Shown: piece by piece, positions 1,579 through 63,851 of the stretch
Layout: each line of letters opens with the position of its first letter
Position numbering within the stretch: position 1 is the stretch's first letter
DNA from: Verrucomicrobiia bacterium
Lineage (GTDB): Bacteria; Verrucomicrobiota; Verrucomicrobiia; Palsa-1439
Length of the DNA stretch: 64,000 nucleotides
Direction: 5' to 3'
Assembly: GCA_049510215.1 (NCBI GenBank)
Contig: JBEKZD010000002.1
Span: 30,167 to 94,166, forward strand
Notes under the pieces: model-generated
Database searches by the model: none
The model's input: only the letters and a program-made list of their open reading frames with translations
Told to the model about the DNA's origin: nothing
Program-made: the position numbers and the translations under genes

Positions 1579-4401
1579 TTAGGGTACCACGCGCACGCGG
1601 TAGTAACGCGCCGGGGCGTTCGTCGCGCCGCCGCTATCCACATAGTTGGTTGTCGCGTCTCCGCTGCCGGGGATGGCGATCAACCCGCTGAGGTCGGTGA
1701 AGTTGGTGGTGTAGCCGCCGCTGCCGTCCCCGGCCGCTGCTTGCACCGCGTTGGTGTGGCCGCCCGCTGTCGTCCAAGTGATTACCACGTCGTTGCTTTG
1801 TTGCACTACGGAAATGATCCGCAGCGCCGACAAGCTGTTGGTCGGATTGGTCCCGGCCAGGAACTCGTTCGTGTTGCTCATCCCGTCGCCGTCAGGATCC
1901 GCACCCGCTGCCGCCAATGGATTGGTGGTCGAGCCAAAGTAATTGATCTGCCATTGCTCAAATGCAGTCAGCAACGATGTGACCACCAGGTTCACTTGCC
2001 CTGCCGTGTTGGTGCTGATCGTGTAGGTGTAGCCTGCTGGCGCGGTGCCGATGCTGACGCTGGTGTAGGTCAGCGCGCCGCCGTAGCTGAACAGCATGTA
2101 CGTGGTGTTGGTGAAGCCACCGGCATCGGTGACGTTGAGTATGCCGCCCAAGGTCAGATTGCCGCTCACCACCGTCAGATCGCTGTTGGTGCCCAAGGCG
2201 TATTGCAGTGCCGCGCCGCCGGTGACCACCACGTTGTTGTTGATCGTCAGCGTGCCGACACCGTTGTTGCCGGGCGAGAGCGTCCCATTCACGGTCACCG
2301 GTCCGCCGATGACGCCGCTGCCGCCGAGCGTCGCGCTGCTGACCACTGTGACCGAACCGGTACCCGTGCCGCTGCCCGCGGTGTTGTTGACCAGCAGCAT
2401 CCCGTTGCTCACGGTCGTCCCACCGCCGTAGCTGTTCGTGCCGGAGAGCGTGAATGTGCCGTTGCCGATCTTGGTCAAGGCCACGGTGTGGGGTGTGCCG
2501 CCGCTTGTGCCATTGGTGATCGTCCCGGCAAATGTCGTGTTGGAGTTCAGGGTGCCAATCACGTACGTGTCCACGCCGGGGCCGGCCTGATCGCTGCCGC
2601 GCAGTGTCGATGCAGAGCCACCGGACAGCGCGCCTAGGAAGATCGTGATGTTGTTTGTCGAGCGGTTGTTGATAGTTCCCAACGAACCGTCGTCGAACGC
2701 AGCATTCGCATCGCCCCAGGTATTTGTACCCTGATTAAACTGCAGCGTGCCGCTGTTGGTAACGGCGAGCGTCCCGGTAAAGCCCGAGGCGTCGCCTTGC
2801 AGTGTCAGCAGGCTGTTCGCCGGCAGATTGAGTGTCAGTGGGCCGGAGCCGCTCAGCGCGCCGCTGAACGTGTTGCTGCCGCTGGTAAAGGCGAGCGTGC
2901 TGGCCCCGCTCGGAGCGGGGCTGGCCGAGACGACGCTGAGGTTGTTGGAGAAACTGACCGCGCCCTGGTTGAACGTGAGCGTGCTGCCGCCCAGGGTGAT
3001 GGAACCGGCGCCGAGCATGTTGGTGTCGGTGATGGCAGCCTTCGCGTTGAAGAAGGCCAGCACGATGTTGGTCGGCGGCATGGCCAATCCACCCAGCGTC
3101 ACCAGATTGGTGTTGACCGCGCTGTTGGTGACGGTGACCTGCGCGTTGTAGAGGTTCAACGTGTTGGTCGTGCCGGGCACGGTGATTTGCGAGTCAGTCA
3201 GTTGGATGCCCTGCGCGTTATAGATGTCGAAGGTCGAGGGGGCCGAAATGTTGACGTGACTCAGCACGGCATTGGTGATGGGCACCTCCTTGCGCCCCCA
3301 AATAATGCCCGCAATGCCCCCGCTGGCCACCGTCGCGGTCACGTTGCTGATCGTGATGTTCCGCCAGATCGGGAAGAGAATCGAACCAACTGCCTGCGTC
3401 GAGGCTCCATACGGAGTGACGGTGGTGGGCGTGCCGTATATGCCGCCGCTGCCGTAGTAGCTGTAAATGACAATCGCTCCATGCACGATGTTGGTCATCG
3501 TGATGTTGGAATAGAAGAGATTCTGCGCCACGCTGCTAGTGGTGTTACTGGCCTTCATGCGAATACCGTAGTCGGTGCCGTTGAACGAGCAGCTTGTCAC
3601 CGTCACGTTCGATACTCCGCCCGAAATATTGCTGCCGATCGATACGCCGTGCCCGACACCAAAAGTGCAATTGGTAATCAGAATGTCGGTAGAAACCCCG
3701 CCGCTGCTTCCGATGGCGATGTTGTCGTCTCCGGCATTGATCGTGCAGTTCGACACCAGACAGGTTGTTCCGATCAAATCAATCCCATCGGTATTGGCCG
3801 CGTTTGATGCCGTGGTATTGATGGTGATCCCTTGAATGGTTATGTTGTCATCGGCACCCTTGAACACGATGTGCATCTTCGGCGGGTTTTGTAACGTTAT
3901 GTCCTGAATCAGTACCCGGTGGCAGTTGCCGTTGAAATAAACCATGTATGGCCGCGGGTCGCCGCCCGGCCACCAACCCGAGCCTTGTCCGTCAATCGTG
4001 CCCGACCCGCTGATCTCGACATCACTCACACCAGTGGCTAAGATAAAGTGGTCCGTACTTGTGAAGTTCGCCTTCGGAAGCATCTTCAGTGTCGCGCCGC
4101 TGTCGATCTGCAAATTGATCTGACTGGCCAGCGTGAGCGGGCCGCTCAGATACGTGCCTGCCGGTATTTCGACCGTGCCGCCGCCCGCGTTACTGGCCGC
4201 ATTGATGGTAGCCTGAATCGCGGTGGTGTTATCATTCGTCCCGCTCACCGCGCCATAGCTCGTAATATTAAAGTTCGTCGCGGGGATGGTCGGCAACTGC
4301 GGCGTGCCGGCGCGTGCCAGTGTGGCCATCCCCAGCAAAGCCAAGCCGAGCATCACCACTCTTTTCATGCGTGACAACCCTGAGAACCCAAGCCCGTCCA
4401 T
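1579..4401 (-). CDS. Secreted GH28 polygalacturonase-like domain fused to autotransporter-associated beta-strand repeats and a ~125-aa C-terminal module
   Basis: GH28 signature blocks are present in order: NTDGIDL, GDDNIAIGS, GHGVSIGS, GIRMKA. Later comes the repeat TKIGNGTFTLSGTNSYGGGTTVSNGMLLVNN. The C-terminus has DPDGDGMSNTNEFLAGTNPTN...ARYYRVRVVP. Signal peptide present; the true start may be M12 at 4368. Confidence 0.8.
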   Translation of the reverse strand: MDGLGFSGLSRMKRVVMLGLALLGMATLARAGTPQLPTIPATNFNITSYGAVSGTNDNTTAIQATINAASNAGGGTVEIPAGTYLSGPLTLASQINLQIDSGATLKMLPKANFTSTDHFILATGVSDVEISGSGTIDGQGSGWWPGGDPRPYMVYFNGNCHRVLIQDITLQNPPKMHIVFKGADDNITIQGITINTTASNAANTDGIDLIGTTCLVSNCTINAGDDNIAIGSSGGVSTDILITNCTFGVGHGVSIGSNISGGVSNVTVTSCSFNGTDYGIRMKASNTTSSVAQNLFYSNITMTNIVHGAIVIYSYYGSGGIYGTPTTVTPYGASTQAVGSILFPIWRNITISNVTATVASGGIAGIIWGRKEVPITNAVLSHVNISAPSTFDIYNAQGIQLTDSQITVPGTTNTLNLYNAQVTVTNSAVNTNLVTLGGLAMPPTNIVLAFFNAKAAITDTNMLGAGSITLGGSTLTFNQGAVSFSNNLSVVSASPAPSGASTLAFTSGSNTFSGALSGSGPLTLNLPANSLLTLQGDASGFTGTLAVTNSGTLQFNQGTNTWGDANAAFDDGSLGTINNRSTNNITIFLGALSGGSASTLRGSDQAGPGVDTYVIGTLNSNTTFAGTITNGTSGGTPHTVALTKIGNGTFTLSGTNSYGGGTTVSNGMLLVNNTAGSGTGTGSVTVVSSATLGGSGVIGGPVTVNGTLSPGNNGVGTLTINNNVVVTGGAALQYALGTNSDLTVVSGNLTLGGILNVTDAGGFTNTTYMLFSYGGALTYTSVSIGTAPAGYTYTISTNTAGQVNLVVTSLLTAFEQWQINYFGSTTNPLAAAGADPDGDGMSNTNEFLAGTNPTNSLSALRIISVVQQSNDVVITWTTAGGHTNAVQAAAGDGSGGYTTNFTDLSGLIAIPGSGDATTNYVDSGGATNAPARYYRVRVVP

Positions 4402-18531: not shown

Positions 18532-18660
18532 AAGACAAGAGTCATAGTGGATGCGCGGATTGCCTTGTTGATTTTCTGGCTGAAATGCGCTTGAGTTGAC
18601 GGCGGGCGGCGGACGGTGCCCCGTCGAAGCCCGCCTTGCGCCCAGGCACGGGGGAGGTCA

Positions 18661-19464
18661 ATGACCGAAAATCGCGTTCATTGCGAGCGGTTGGTGGCCC
18701 TGATAAAACCGAACACTTCCAGAGCGTTTCGCGCCGTGATCATCATCGCGCTGATGGTCACCGCCCAAGCGGTCTGTGCCGGGCCACCGTTCACCACGGA
18801 CGACCCCGAGCCGGTCGAATATAAACACTGGGAAGTCTATCTGGCGTCGCAACTCGCTCACGACGCGAGCGGCTGGTCGGGCACGTCGCCGCAAGTGGAA
18901 GTCAACTACGGAGTGATTACAAATCTCCAACTGCACCTCATCGCCCCCATCGCGTTCGTGGCGCCGGCGCATGGCAGCACCCGGTTTGGCTACGGCGACA
19001 CGGAGTTGGGGGCGAAGTATCGCTTCATCGAGGAAACGCCGCGCTGCCCGCAGATTGGAACGTTCCCCCTCGTCGAGGTGCCGAGCGGTGACCGCGAGCG
19101 CAGGCTGGGCAGCGGGCATGTCCAGGCATTTCTTCCGTTATGGCTCCAGAAGACTGCGGGTTCGTGGACGACTTACGGCGGTGGCGGGTATTGGATTAAT
19201 CCCGGCGCGGAAAACCGCAATTGGTGGTTCGTCGGCTGGCTGCTGCAGCGCCAAGTGACCGCCAAACTGGCGCTGGGCGCGGAGGTCTTTCACGAGACTG
19301 CCCAAGAAAAGGGCGGCGAGTCCGATACGCAGTTCAATCTCGGTGGCGTTTTCGATTTCAGCGAGACGTATCATCTGCTGGCTTCCGCGGGGCACACCAT
19401 CCAAGGATCGAGCGGCTACCAAGGTTACATCGCGTTGCAGTTCACCTTCGGTCCGGGCAAGTGA
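18661..19464 (+). CDS. Outer-membrane channel of the MetA-pathway/transporter-like family
   Basis: Signal peptide, then PPFTTDDPEPVEYKHWEVYL, GYGDTELGAKYRF and a C-terminal LQFTF. ATG at 18661 is preferred. Confidence 0.55.
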   Translation: MTENRVHCERLVALIKPNTSRAFRAVIIIALMVTAQAVCAGPPFTTDDPEPVEYKHWEVYLASQLAHDASGWSGTSPQVEVNYGVITNLQLHLIAPIAFVAPAHGSTRFGYGDTELGAKYRFIEETPRCPQIGTFPLVEVPSGDRERRLGSGHVQAFLPLWLQKTAGSWTTYGGGGYWINPGAENRNWWFVGWLLQRQVTAKLALGAEVFHETAQEKGGESDTQFNLGGVFDFSETYHLLASAGHTIQGSSGYQGYIALQFTFGPGK

Positions 19465-19851
19465 TCTGATGAATTGGCATGAGTGACACCTAGGAATCTG
19501 CCGGGAAACGGCTGCAGGAGATGGCGCTGGTGTTTCTGCGGCTCGGCAGCGCATGTCGCGATGATTGCGTCGTTGATGTGCTTGCTGATGAGCATAGTGC
19601 CCACAACTTGAAACGCTTTCCGCCATAATTCAGATCAAATCACCGACCCGAATCGCCGGTCCTGATACGATCCATCACTCACCACGAAGCACACGAAGCT
19701 CACCAAGGCGTCCCGTAGGAGCGGCATTCTTGCCGCGATCGACCTTACCCCGCCATCAAAGCGTTTGTGCTTGCGAGACCCGATGCCGTGCATTAACGTG
19801 CCCTCCGTGAAAGGAGTGCAGGCAACGCGGACTCCTAAGGTTAGCGGAAAT

Positions 19852-19876
19852 AGACGCCGATGTGGCGTCTTTTTTT
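19852..19876 (+). terminator. Terminator-like hairpin plus T-run immediately upstream of the first cassette
   Basis: AGACGCC-gatgt-GGCGTCT followed by TTTTTT. Confidence 0.45.
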
Positions 19877-19909
19877 ACGCCATTATGGTGTCTACTTCAT
19901 GTTAGACTG

Positions 19910-20215
19910 ATGAAGATCTATTTCGGTAAAGACATTCCGGAGTTTGAGGGGTTGTCCGTGGAAGTACGGCGCGAGGTTTGGTCAGCATGCTTGCCGTTTG
20001 CCTTCAAACACTGGCAGACTTGGATTGCTCTTTCGGTGCTGACGATTTCTGTGATTCTCACCGGATTTGTTTGGCTGTCGCTATCATCTTCGTCACTCCT
20101 TCCTCACTTATTTGCTATGTTTATAGTCGTCCCCTGTGCTGTTGTCTTTCATTCTGTGGAGATCGAGATACTTCGTCCTTACTTTCGGGAGTATTTACGA
20201 AGACGAAAAGTCTAA
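19910..20215 (+). CDS. Cassette ORF 1: small membrane protein (2 TM), no recognised family
   Basis: MKIYFGKDIPEFEGL...WIALSVLTISVILTGFVWLSL. The TAA stop lies inside the attC1 inverse core. Confidence 0.5.
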   Translation: MKIYFGKDIPEFEGLSVEVRREVWSACLPFAFKHWQTWIALSVLTISVILTGFVWLSLSSSSLLPHLFAMFIVVPCAVVFHSVEIEILRPYFREYLRRRKV

Positions 20216-20279
20216 CCATCCGCTTCAGCCAACCGCGACCCGCTGCGCGGCTCGCGGTGGCTGAGCTTTATCGTTAGGC
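20210..20279 (+). repeat. attC-like site 1 (70 bp)
   Basis: GTCTAAC (RYYYAAC) ... GCTTCAGCCAACCGCGA / CTCGCGGTGGCTGAGC ... GTTAGGC (GTTRRRY). The arms pair with one unpaired T. Confidence 0.65.
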
Positions 20280-20283
20280 ATCT

Positions 20284-20562
20284 ATGACACACCAACCAAA
20301 TAGAGACCGTTTCGCTCGGTGGCTTGGCTTGATGTATGCCACCGGCGCTCTGTTGATTGTGTGCGGGATACCGGCGACCGTTTTGCTCGTTTTGATGTTC
20401 ATGCACGTGCATGACAAGTCGGAGCGTTTGGATGGGTCGGAAGCATTGCTTTTCGGCGGTAGCATGGTTGCGGCGGAAGCTATTATTGCAGGCATTTTGC
20501 TATATGTTGCCGAGAGGATTACCAAGCGCAGACATACTAAAAATGACGATGCTGATGCCTAA
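20284..20562 (+). CDS. Cassette ORF 2: small membrane protein, no recognised family
   Basis: 92 aa with hydrophobic segments LGLMYATGALLIVCGIPATVLLVLMF and LLFGGSMVAAEAIIAGILLYV. The ATG is 5 nt after attC1. Confidence 0.5.
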   Translation: MTHQPNRDRFARWLGLMYATGALLIVCGIPATVLLVLMFMHVHDKSERLDGSEALLFGGSMVAAEAIIAGILLYVAERITKRRHTKNDDADA

Positions 20563-20655
20563 CAAGTCGCCGGAGCCAACGCCGGTTGGCGCGTGCCGTT
20601 CCGCTTCGCGGTTCACGGTTTTTGGTCCGGCGTGGCTCAGCTTTTTTCGTTAGGG
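20557..20655 (+). repeat. attC-like site 2 (99 bp)
   Basis: GCCTAAC ... GGAGCCAACGCCGG / CCGGCGTGGCTC ... GTTAGGG. The stop TAA of ORF 2 lies inside the first box. Confidence 0.65.
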
Positions 20656-20662
20656 TGCGAAA

Positions 20663-21247
20663 GTGGAAGAGCGTACAACACAAGAGCTCATTGAAAAATT
20701 GGGGGACGACGTTGATCGATGCCATGCTGGTCTAGTCCAATGCATTGATGACGGCGAAGCGGCTGGTGACGGCAGCGTCACGGTTGACTACGAGTACCAC
20801 GCGCGACAGTTGATTCGATCGATTCTTGCCTACGTGGAAGGGGTCACGTTTTCTGTCAAGGTTTCAGCTGTGGCGCGGTGCCTCGATTCAGGCATTGAGG
20901 TATCAGACCACGAGCGTTATCTGGCGGTGGAGATAGATGGCCAACTCAACGACAAAGGCGAGGTAATCGAGCGCCCCGCGAAGTTGCGTCTTGCTGAGAA
21001 TGTTCGATTCGCATTCCGCCTCTTAGAGAAAGCAACACAGGGTGCGTTTCGCTTTGATCCCTCTGTCGAGTGGTGGGCTTCGCTTCGCGGGACCATTGCT
21101 GTCAGAGATCGTCTCACACATCCTCGATATCCGCAGGATATTGATGTTTCGGGTGAAGAAATCGTAAATGCTTTAAAAGCAAAGGTGGGCTTTGAAACGG
21201 CCCTAACTAGCTATAAGCAGCGAAAGCCTAAGCTAAGGAATCCCTAA
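20663..21247 (+). CDS. Cassette ORF 3: soluble 194-aa protein with an R-D-x3-H (HEPN-like) motif
   Basis: GTG start 8 nt after attC2. C-terminal half reads ...WWASLRGTIAVRDRLTHPRYPQDI... No other family recognised. Confidence 0.55.
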   Translation: MEERTTQELIEKLGDDVDRCHAGLVQCIDDGEAAGDGSVTVDYEYHARQLIRSILAYVEGVTFSVKVSAVARCLDSGIEVSDHERYLAVEIDGQLNDKGEVIERPAKLRLAENVRFAFRLLEKATQGAFRFDPSVEWWASLRGTIAVRDRLTHPRYPQDIDVSGEEIVNALKAKVGFETALTSYKQRKPKLRNP

Positions 21248-21302
21248 CCATGCGCTTCAGCCAACGCCGCTGGCGCGGCATGGCTGAGCTTGGACGATAG
21301 TT
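21242..21302 (+). repeat. attC-like site 3 (about 61 bp, degenerate 3' core)
   Basis: CCCTAAC CATGC GCTTCAGCCAACGCCGC TGGC GCGGCATGGCTGAGC TTGGAC GATAGTT. The 5' half is nearly identical to attC1, but the 3' box is GATAGTT rather than GTTRRRY. Confidence 0.5.
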
Positions 21303-21307
21303 CACAA

Positions 21308-21787
21308 ATGATACTGGCCAACGTAATCTTCCCTGCTCCGTCGGCTGCATACTTCGTAAACTTCTTTTTCCCGCTTTCAGCGGTGTTGGCATTGGCTACC
21401 GAGTTCGCGGTGTTCGCCTACTTCCAGCATGGCGTTATTTCCAAGTCGCGTCTTCTTGGCGTGGTTGTTGGCGTCAATCTGTTCTCTTGGTTTGTGGGTA
21501 TCGTGTTGTCATCCTTCCTGCCGAGTGGTCTTGTTCCAAAGTTGGTTGGTGAGGGTGAGCATCAGGCTCATATCATCACGCAAGGCCCCCACTGGGGCAC
21601 TATCGCCATTCTCAGCTTCTTCTGGGCGTGCTTGCTGAGTTTCGGACTTGAGTACGGGGCATTGCGGTTGTTTCGCAGACGACTGCCGTTTCAGAGGCTC
21701 GCTCTTTGCGTTGGTACTGCGAACGTCGCGAGCTACTGCGTCATTGCTGTGGTTGTGGCCGTGCACCTTCATTTCAACCTTTTCTGA
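21308..21787 (+). CDS. Small polytopic membrane protein (4-5 TM), last ORF of the low-GC block; no attC follows
   Basis: MILANVIFPAPSAAYFVNFFFPLSAVLALATEFAVFAYF... ATG at 21308 is preferred to TTG at 21290. Confidence 0.5.
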   Translation: MILANVIFPAPSAAYFVNFFFPLSAVLALATEFAVFAYFQHGVISKSRLLGVVVGVNLFSWFVGIVLSSFLPSGLVPKLVGEGEHQAHIITQGPHWGTIAILSFFWACLLSFGLEYGALRLFRRRLPFQRLALCVGTANVASYCVIAVVVAVHLHFNLF

Positions 21788-21856
21788 TGAAGAGCGATGA
21801 GCTATCAATCGGGTCTGAGGCAGTCCGCAAAAACGAACTGGGGCAATCCGAGCGGT

Positions 21857-22801
21857 TCAGTCCAGCGCCTTCCCAGCAAGCCATTTCACCGTGCGCTCCA
21901 TCGTTGGGGCCGACATCAGGGCGCTGATGTGGCCTTGCCGCGTCCGCCAGATCGTCGGCTTGTTCCACGCGAGCCAAAGTTCCTCGATCGTTTCCACCGG
22001 CGCGAACAGATCGTGTTCAGAAGCGACCAGCAAAATGTTTTCCGGCGGCAGCTTCGGGCGATGCGAGATGAGGTTCAGCCGATCCAGCCGGACCTCGACG
22101 CCTTCCAGTCGTTTCCGAATCGGACGACAGAAATCCAGTTCGTCGATGACGCGGTCGATTCTCGACACGGGAGTGGTCAGCACCGCGCTGCCGATCCGCG
22201 GTTCGGTGCAGGCTAACAATCCGCTCAGCCATGCGCCGAGCGAGAAACCCCACAGCCCAACAAACGGCGAGCCTTGTTCTCTCAGCCAGGCGACGAGGGC
22301 GCGCGTGTCGGCCAGCGCCTGTCGCGTTGCGCCGGCGACTTGGAGCAGATCGTCGGAAAGAAAGTTCTTCACCGCGCCGCGACCACGCGGTTTCCGGTGC
22401 GAGTGATAGGGCAGTTCGATCATCGCGGCGTTAAGACCAGCGCGGTTGAGCCGCCACGCGAGGTAGGGGAACAACACGCGATAACCCGACTCGGCGTTCC
22501 AACCGTGCAACAGGATGACTGTCGGATGCCGCCGCCAGTTTTCCGCACACGCAAACAATTTGCCGTGCACGATGTTGTTCTCAGCCCACGGCGTCTGAAT
22601 CGGCGAGGTGAACCGAAACTTCTTGTCGTTGGTGAACGTCAGGTCGCCCGGAACCTGGACGAAGTCGCAGAAGAAATCAGGATCATCCAGCAACTTCTCG
22701 GCGGCGGTGGCCTGACTGCCTTCGCCGTTGCCGTTGTGGACGCTGAACCGGGCAAGCTGGATGGAGAGCCAATCCATCGGCTTTGCCAGAACTGCATGCA
22801 T
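21857..22801 (-). CDS. alpha/beta hydrolase
   Basis: ILLHGWNAESGY and nucleophile elbow GFSLGAW. ATG at 22801 avoids overlap with trpD. Confidence 0.7.
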   Translation of the reverse strand: MHAVLAKPMDWLSIQLARFSVHNGNGEGSQATAAEKLLDDPDFFCDFVQVPGDLTFTNDKKFRFTSPIQTPWAENNIVHGKLFACAENWRRHPTVILLHGWNAESGYRVLFPYLAWRLNRAGLNAAMIELPYHSHRKPRGRGAVKNFLSDDLLQVAGATRQALADTRALVAWLREQGSPFVGLWGFSLGAWLSGLLACTEPRIGSAVLTTPVSRIDRVIDELDFCRPIRKRLEGVEVRLDRLNLISHRPKLPPENILLVASEHDLFAPVETIEELWLAWNKPTIWRTRQGHISALMSAPTMERTVKWLAGKALD

Positions 22802-50551: not shown

Positions 50552-50628
<77 letters not shown>

Positions 50629-63575: not shown

Positions 63576-63851
63576 TTAATCGACGAGACAGTAGCCCGGT
63601 TCACCTAGAACTGGCTGCGCGGCAGTTTGTTGCGTCGAATCCCTGCCGCCGGCCAACTGGTACAGAAGTCGGTCGCGCTTGCGCCGGGCCTCGTCGATCC
63701 GCTTGGTGCCGAGAGAAAAGCGGAGCCTTTGCTTGGTCAGAGGCGTTGGATGAACGGTGTAATGGACAAACCACGTCCCGTTGTTGTTCCAAAGGTGATG
63801 TCGCGGATTCGCGGGGTTCACCCGAACTGCTACTATTGTTGTCCGACTCAT
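63576..63851 (-). pseudogene. Possible N-terminal remnant of a tyrosine recombinase/integrase (91 codons, no catalytic domain)
   Basis: RVNPANPRHHLWNNNGTWFVHYTVHPTP...RLRFSLGTKRIDEARRKRDRLL resembles integrase arm-type N-termini. A stop follows after 91 codons and only about 80 nt remain before the next gene. Confidence 0.3.

Follow-up and report, generated by a model that had tools for sequence, protein, structure and literature searches.

The window analysed here, a 64,000-nt (64 kb) stretch of contig JBEKZD010000002.1 from a soil bacterium of the class Verrucomicrobiia, contains at ~19.6-21.8 kb a short array of integron-type gene cassettes. We consider this locus very probably to be a decayed chromosomal integron, in which the recombination site attI and four cassettes are kept and the integrase gene intI has been lost, making it by definition a set of clustered attC sites without an integron integrase (CALIN).

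The GC content is 0.50-0.56 across this region, compared with 0.60-0.65 in both flanks. The original prediction, made from the sequence alone, described a low-GC stretch with four co-oriented orphan open reading frames (ORFs), the first three followed by attC-like palindromes. The sequences quoted there were all found at the positions given for them, the GC drop and the ORFs were confirmed, and searches against Pfam and NCBIfam assigned no family to any of the four ORFs. The ORFs and the sites following them are listed below (a slash within a core marks the crossover point; bit scores and E-values are those of the covariance model R1, described further on).

19910-20215, plus strand: ORF1, 101 aa, a small predicted membrane protein
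20210-20279, plus strand: attC1, 70 nt, R'' GTCTAAC, R' GTTAGGC; 61 bits, E = 7.7e-13
20284-20562, plus strand: ORF2, 92 aa, a small predicted membrane protein
20557-20655, plus strand: attC2, 99 nt with a long variable centre, R'' GCCTAAC, R' GTTAGGG; 45.8 bits, E = 4.7e-9
20663-21247, plus strand: ORF3, 194 aa, a helical protein whose family is widespread and unannotated
21242-21302, plus strand: attC3, 61 nt, R'' CCCTAAC, hybrid R' G/ATAGTT; 42.3 bits, E = 3.5e-8
21308-21787, plus strand: ORF4, 159 aa, a predicted membrane protein

The ATG of ORF4 is at 21308, the start listed earlier (21290) being a TTG. The stop codons of ORF1, ORF2 and ORF3 each lie inside an RYYYAAC inverse core, which is present at all three sites, as had been predicted. 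The arms of attC1 are GCT[T]CAGCC[A]AC (L'', extra bases in brackets) and GTGGCTGAGC (L'). The inner-arm motifs GCYKSAGCCAAC and TGGCTSAGCTT have exact matches in the 64 kb at the three sites only, and the palindromes are not scattered over the window in the manner of ordinary repetitive extragenic palindromes (REPs), all three being in the array.

A comparison of the window with Rfam yielded one tRNA only, with no match at the attC sites. As Rfam was silent there, an independent covariance test was built. A metagenome contig (L017) carries a 69%-identical homologue of ORF3 amid small orphan ORFs and four palindromes that share their grammar and the placement of their extra bases with the window sites, and from the window and L017 sites we derived the search pattern CTAAC-N4-CGNTNNAGCNNAC-N15-45-GCTNANC-N5-8-GTTAG. 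In 596 Gb of species-representative genomes it was found in at least 120 stretches, compared with ~2 expected by chance according to our own estimate, which assumes uniform base composition. Tandem arrays account for many of the matches and occur in Betaproteobacteria, Xanthomonadales-type Gammaproteobacteria, Cyanobacteria, Acidobacteriota and Planctomycetota; a verrucomicrobial Udaeobacter supplies one match. One of the matching sites (L137) we take to be an aadA-type 59-base element, and another (L083) has next to it an integrase that agrees with our IntI1 probe in all of its first 105 residues. An IntI homologue is present in ~24 of the 120 loci (each of at most 8 kb), mostly divergent and upstream of the attC top strand, and the four homologues tested score 384-499 bits on TIGR02249 (cutoff 265).

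An inverted arrangement was also seen: in L142, L133, L129, L113 and L200/L213, intI shares the strand of the attC top strand and is not divergent.

Model R1 was built from 44 non-redundant attC sites of other loci, either IntI-linked or arrayed, with none taken from the window. In the alignment of these sites the R''/R' and L''/L' positions pair in 91.9% of cases, versus 24-39% when the partners are slid, and compensatory changes are abundant at positions left free by the search pattern. Applied without filters to the entire window, the model produced only three plus-strand matches, at exactly the coordinates predicted for the three sites; the next best match has E = 0.94. Of the three, only attC1 is an exact fit to the search pattern; attC2 and attC3 do not fit it and nevertheless have good scores. 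The bottom strand of attC1 folds far better than its shuffled versions (z = -6.4), and its 3' arm has two single-base bulges; the respective values for attC2 and attC3 are z = -2.2 and z = -3.1. In attC1 and attC3 the extrahelical bases occupy model positions 16 and 23 (GCT[T]CAGCC[A]AC), as in the 44 reference sites, so that the bulges stand at the canonical positions. Judged by model scores and predicted folds, the three palindromes are genuine attC sites.

The sites also resemble the attC sites of class 1 integrons (59-base elements of the aadA type) part by part: an RYYYAAC core, a 5-nt spacer, an L'' arm whose two extra bases are placed identically, a variable centre, an L' arm, a spacer of 5-8 nt and a GTTRRRY core. 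They differ in that one of the bulged bases in attC1 and attC3 is an A on the bottom strand, where it is usually a G. The setting differs as well, as the window cargo is not antibiotic resistance and the locus is chromosomal, in Verrucomicrobiia.

Integron crossover follows the G of the 7-bp core, and the next six bases come from the next cassette and complement its own R''. Hence, if the crossover takes place after the G, the six bases following each G should be complementary to the R'' at the far end of that next cassette. This rule divides the array into four units.

19902-20273, plus strand: cassette 1, 372 bp; preceding core GTTAGAC against its own R'' GTCTAAC, 7/7 complementary
20274-20649, plus strand: cassette 2, 376 bp; preceding core GTTAGGC against its own R'' GCCTAAC, 7/7
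20650-21296, plus strand: cassette 3, 647 bp; preceding core GTTAGGG against its own R'' CCCTAAC, 7/7
21297-21811, plus strand: cassette 4, truncated at the 3' end; preceding core GATAGTT against its own R'' AGCTATC, 6/7
21800-21811, plus strand: attC remnant of cassette 4, R'' AGCTATC (21800-21806) and spacer AATCG, the remainder of the attC missing

By the complementarity of their cores, all four ORFs are discrete cassettes.

The fourth unit requires separate consideration. The original prediction regarded GATAGTT, which ends attC3, as a degenerate core; instead, it is the 5' boundary of cassette 4, a cassette with a GAT core, and its last six bases belong to that cassette. Model R1 has no match downstream of ORF4. 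An 83%-identical homologue of ORF4 forms the end of another cassette array (L143), and the window (21293-21810) and L143 (5335-5852) share 78% nucleotide identity over 518 nt. This homology starts at the GATAG core before ORF4 and ends ~23 nt past the stop codon, in AGCTATC-AATC, where AGCTATC (21800-21806) is the reverse complement of GATAGCT. Thus, by homology to L143, ORF4 is a cassette with a G/AT core, whose attC has kept only the R'' box and the spacer, and it is because of this core that attC3 ends in GATAGTT. We also considered ORF4 as resident DNA, with GATAGTT as a hybrid formed at a genomic secondary target. This was rejected, as the window and L143 share the flanks of ORF4, GATAG on one side and CTATC on the other, and also in view of the covariation of GAT and ATC described below.

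A collection of metagenomes was scanned for the full attC grammar with a CTATC R'', yielding 69 stretches with 75 sites, of which 19 have GATAG and 56 have GTTAG as R'. Many of these sites have arms nearly identical to those of attC1 and attC3. Model R1 found 202 attC sites in the loci thus selected, including an array of ~35 sites in L177. Among 107 cassettes outside the window, all 35 that are preceded by GAT have ATC in their R'', and 59 of the 72 preceded by GTT have AAC (Fisher p ~1e-17; together with the L143 homology, the 35/35 covariation supports the assignment of cassette 4). In the cassettes of the CTATC-R'' loci there is no association between R'' and R' within one attC. GAT- and GTT-core cassettes are mixed within the same arrays (the whole of L177, L190 at 2290-2664, L147-L215). 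The covariation is the pattern expected if each cassette carried its own core type at both ends.

According to Frumerie et al. 2010 (PMC2811028), the GTT triplet was absolutely conserved in the integrons characterised by then; in the laboratory, with IntI1, the change T2->A was tolerated or even raised attC x attI1 recombination, and these authors cite GAT as a preferred secondary site. A literature search, which was not exhaustive, found no report of natural attC sites with a GAT core. We regard the case as evenly balanced that in an environmental integron lineage, probably of soil bacteria, G/AT might be a regular natural alternative to G/TT, both in attC sites and in attI-cassette junctions. 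If so, it would be a natural counterpart of the tolerance to T2->A seen in the laboratory, and PCR surveys with attC primers ending in GTT, as well as consensus-based definitions, would miss a class of cassettes. The GAT-core junctions hence bear on how strict the crossover triplet is in nature and on how complete cassette surveys are.

The sequence in front of cassette 1 contains the following features.

19757-19900, plus strand: attI region remnant, comprising conserved attI-proximal DNA (19757-19844) and a 60-bp attI block (19845-19904) that reaches into the junction core
19852-19877, plus strand: terminator-like hairpin and T-run inside the attI block, AGACGCC-GATGT-GGCGTCT-TTTTTTT, found by a terminator scan
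19901-19907, plus strand: attI/cassette-1 junction core GTTAGAC, with the G from attI and TTAGAC from cassette 1

The block at 19845-19904 matches positions 272-331 of metagenome contig L209 in 54 of 60 bases (90%; score 90, null 17.8 ± 2.1). In L209 this block sits between a divergent IntI N-terminus and the first cassette; this N-terminus shares 72% identity with a validated IntI, and its TIGR02249 score is 73.8 bits. The attI block was also found in a second contig, L214, to which the window is similar further upstream as well (19757-19835 against 546-624 of L214; score 46, null 20.4 ± 3.2). At the homologous position the junctions read CATG/TTAGAC in the window, CATG/ATAGGC in L209 and CATG/ATAGAC in L214. 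Thus, by homology, attI precedes the first cassette here as it does in a complete integron. GTTAGAC at 19901, which the original prediction had noted before the first ORF, is the crossover core of this retained attI; the weaker attC-like stretch proposed there at 19791-19846 has no model match and folds no better than shuffled sequence (z = -0.17), and it belongs instead to the conserved attI-proximal DNA.

The attI hairpin is conserved in L209 (278-302) and L214 (about 711-735), as seen in a three-way alignment, and lies on the cassette-coding strand; if it is active, transcription from any Pc promoter would stop short of the cassettes. A scan of 19300-22000 for sigma-70-like promoters found none, the consensus being one that does not cover this phylum. 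No similarity to the attI of the window was observed in L190, an integron-bearing contig described below (score 15, null 16.9); thus, the attI regions of L190 and L209 differ despite similar attC sites.

A putative L box of attI seems to covary with the R box of the first cassette (window, 19888-19907; L209, ~312-334; L214, ~743-765), the pairs being GTCTAC...TAGAC in the window and in L214 and GCCTAC...TAGGC in L209; as there are three examples only, it could be due to chance.

In a complete integron intI is adjacent to attI and the array, and here it would be expected just to the left of attI on the minus strand. The original prediction had stated that no integrase gene is adjacent, and the searches agree. 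A tblastn search of the window with an IntI1 probe gave nothing at E <= 1e-3, and with six HMM-validated IntI proteins the best hit in the 64 kb has E = 0.3, with nothing convincing within 10 kb on either side of the array (the intI_Cterm HMM was not run). Only ~250 bp, without coding capacity for IntI, separate the attI region from the nearest gene remnant on the left. A 52-codon reverse ORF (19635-19793, minus strand) lies where intI should begin and is called as a gene in all assemblies; it has no NCBIfam match, and its nucleotide similarity to the start of intI in L209 is not significant. It may be the decayed 5' end of intI, or it may be meaningless.

The closest systems found are sedentary chromosomal integrons of environmental bacteria, represented by L190 (Ga0247727_10016978), L209 (Ga0335085_10443162) and L177. 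L190 encodes an integron integrase (2810-4195, plus strand) split by an in-frame stop codon at 3608-3610, its two parts scoring 283 and 72 bits; the stop could reflect a pseudogene or an assembly error. This gene adjoins four attC sites of the window subfamily, with arms nearly identical to those of attC1 and attC3, and the first cassette of L190 starts with G/ATAGGT and has ACCTATC as its own R''. The window shares with these integrons the attC subfamily, marked by the CAATYC spacer, the GCTTCAGCCAAC/GTGGCTGAGC arms and the CTTTATC spacer, as well as the attI block (with L209) and the mixing of GTT and GAT cassettes. It differs from them in the absence of an integrase, in having just four cassettes and in the truncation of its last attC.

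The surroundings of the array were compared with those in related genomes. The neighbouring genes are as follows.

18616-19464, plus strand: outer-membrane (OM) channel gene (Phenol_MetA_deg-like)
19562-19598, minus strand: 5' remnant of a ferritin/rubrerythrin-like gene, 37 bp, ~12 codons, MLISKHINDAI
21857-22801, minus strand: alpha/beta hydrolase (ABHD18-like), with Pfam and NCBIfam matches

The array thus lies, as originally placed, in the interval between the OM-channel gene and the hydrolase; its direct neighbour on the left, however, is not the OM-channel gene but the ferritin remnant, which matches the beginning of the ferritin gene of three related loci (L011, L012, L014) with 89% identity over 36-37 bp. 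In relatives with 66-87% identical hydrolases, the rplU-rpmA-aminotransferase-trpD-hydrolase block is kept whole or in part; the DNA beyond the hydrolase is a different one, and in three of these relatives a ferritin/rubrerythrin gene comes next. The relatives thus retain the trpD-hydrolase block, and both the four ORFs and the repeats are absent from the interval. In the spacers between the hydrolase and ferritin genes of L011-L014 no attC was found by eye or with model R1, and therefore the cassettes are not ancestral there. The presence of the ferritin 5' remnant in the window implies the ancestral order trpD, hydrolase, spacer, ferritin. The remnant is joined to the 3' side of the OM-channel gene, which indicates that the body of the ferritin gene was probably lost later, in a deletion or rearrangement that brought in the zwf-opcA-OM channel block.

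On the other side of the array, hydrolases 92-99% identical to that of the window (P0001, P0362, P0364, P0367, P0369), compared at their protein C-termini only, end in unrelated tails of 0-17 residues after ...KALD, so that conservation among strains stops exactly at the stop codon of the window gene, at 21857. The DNA abutting the 3' end of the hydrolase (21857-21875) therefore varies between strains, which suggests a hot spot. Judged against these relatives and strains, the array is an insertion into a variable spot. Within the population itself, at least 23 metagenome assemblies from different samples carry this array in identical form.

Cury et al. 2016 (PMC4889954) define a CALIN by two or more attC sites that lie on the same strand, at spacings below 4 kb, and have no intI in their vicinity (4 kb, with a second test at 10 kb). 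The array agrees with this definition: three attC sites fall in 1.1 kb of the plus strand, and no intI was found within 4 or 10 kb of them, nor, as far as the searches reached, in the 64 kb. Like other CALINs it is short and carries small orphan ORFs without database families. According to the same authors, 95% of CALINs have no intI pseudogene nearby, and attI is unknown for most integrons, so that the origin of a CALIN is usually unreadable. In contrast, the attI of the window can still be recognised by its homology to a complete integron, and it is this homology to the L209 block that makes the array appear a remnant left after the loss of intI and not an off-site insertion. Several observations weigh against the interpretation as a decayed integron with a retained attI. 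The attI assignment depends on two short metagenome contigs, L209 of 1.5 kb and L214 of 2 kb, and an IntI fragment is seen in L209 only, where it runs off the contig end. The integrase in L190 contains one in-frame stop. The 19635-19793 ORF resembles an IntI N-terminus only marginally, at a score reached by 8 of 500 shuffles. The integrase search covers 64 kb, and an intI gene may exist elsewhere in the genome. Finally, model R1 is not the model of IntegronFinder, its training sites were gathered with a pattern partly derived from the window and L017, and, owing to a shortened calibration, its E-values are rough.

If there is an intI elsewhere, the array could be the attI-cassette piece of a still-active integron split by rearrangement and serviced in trans by the surviving integrase. 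We find this possible but rather unlikely. Half of CALINs occur in genomes encoding IntI (Cury et al. 2016, PMC4889954), a rearrangement beside the array is clear from the truncated ferritin gene joined to the zwf-opcA-OM channel block, and attC1, attC2 and attC3 are structurally intact; at the same time, the 64 kb contain no IntI-like sequence, and the identity of the array in the 23 or more assemblies argues against frequent shuffling. The trans-serviced array and the decayed integron differ in present activity only, not in the identity of the element.

A second possibility is that no integron platform has ever existed here, and that an integrase acting in trans inserted the cassettes directly at a non-classical secondary site of the attG type (GWT). 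Insertions of this kind were demonstrated by Loot et al. (bioRxiv 10.1101/2022.09.11.507474), who propose that small CALINs can originate in this way. The array is small, the locus is variable among strains, and no intI pseudogene is detectable at it; moreover, as in the attG insertions (SALINs and small CALINs), cassettes stand outside a functional integron and a GWT triplet is involved, the GAT of cassette 4. Still, we consider this origin very improbable. The first junction of the array is embedded in attI-homologous sequence, unlike an insertion into unrelated genomic DNA: in L209, the block separating intI from the first cassette shares 90% identity with the 60 bp that precede the first crossover G here, the similarity ending at the same G, and weaker similarity extends ~90 bp further upstream, whereas a random genomic GWT target would not share an attI block. 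The GAT core, in turn, belongs to cassette 4, which has its own CTATC in R'', and not to a genomic target.

That the palindromes are ordinary REPs or intrinsic terminators resembling attC is barely conceivable, since, although they are GC-rich hairpins after ORFs, with a T-run after attC2 and with attC1 flagged by a terminator scan, there are only three copies in the 64 kb, in one array and on one strand, with conserved R''/R' cores, canonical bulges and significant model scores, sites of the same type lie beside validated integron integrases, and the cassette-wise complementarity of the cores would be left unexplained.

As a decayed integron, the locus would have formed in the following way. 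By the established mechanism, the cassettes would have been caught singly, IntI joining the folded attC bottom strand of a circular cassette to attI, the 7-bp core being cut after its G and before the two bases that follow; this model of capture fits the complement of its own R'' found before every cassette. Four presumably promoterless cassettes would thus have been lined up on the plus strand behind the attI crossover G at 19901, and intI, divergent and to the left of attI, would subsequently have been lost. The array would now have no autonomous movement. Given an IntI in trans, from the genome or from an incoming element, cassettes 1-3 could be excised and reshuffled, while cassette 4 would be immobile because of its broken attC. 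The order of events, the current immobility and the mobilisation in trans are what we infer from this scheme.

The type of element is well known, and the GAT-core cassette is unusual. Thousands of CALINs are known, and Verrucomicrobia are already among the listed integron-bearing phyla; taken alone, the identification of a textbook-type element is hence an annotation and not a discovery. Its interest is that of a CALIN with a readable origin, which would document the route through integrase loss at a time when attG insertion has been proposed for small CALINs.

In the cargo of the array, ORF1, ORF3 and ORF4 each belong to a widespread family of matching length: the ORF1 family comprises 87 representative clusters with full-length alignments, and ORF3 has more than 120 homologues of ~190 aa, one of them in Gallionella. 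Homologues of ORF3 occur in three other contexts with different neighbours (L017, L015/L016 and L018), with their own attC or with cores at the cassette boundaries. In L017 and L015/L016 a model-positive attC directly follows the stop codon of the homologue, and fragments of integron integrases are present in L018 and L015. The families of ORF1, ORF3 and ORF4 are widespread unannotated proteins travelling as cassettes, and they are candidates for functional study. PADLOC and PHROGs searches with the cassette proteins gave nothing usable for function. The AlphaFold2 model of ORF3 is confident (pLDDT 88.8) and helical, with no significant structural match in PDB, and the family has an invariant R-x4-H motif (RDRLTHP). 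The predicted fold faintly resembles HepT/HEPN toxins (TM ~0.5); sequence-level support for this was looked for and none was found, so a possible HEPN identity is only a lead.

In L015 (1-10700) the ORF3 homologue, 79% identical, forms a cassette with its own attC on an island that also holds the Thoeris genes (ThsA/ThsB) and an AcrVA2-like gene, and a 128-aa C-terminal fragment of an integron integrase is located 5.8 kb from this cassette.

Outside the array, the 91-codon relic at 63.6 kb (63576-63851, minus strand), originally described as an integrase-like trace, is integrase-like in that it matches a phage-type Arm DNA-binding domain below the Pfam threshold, but it does not match the integron-integrase model and is not an integron integrase. 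A tRNA gene (50552-50625, plus strand) lies 13 kb from this relic, and both may be traces of an unrelated integrated element.

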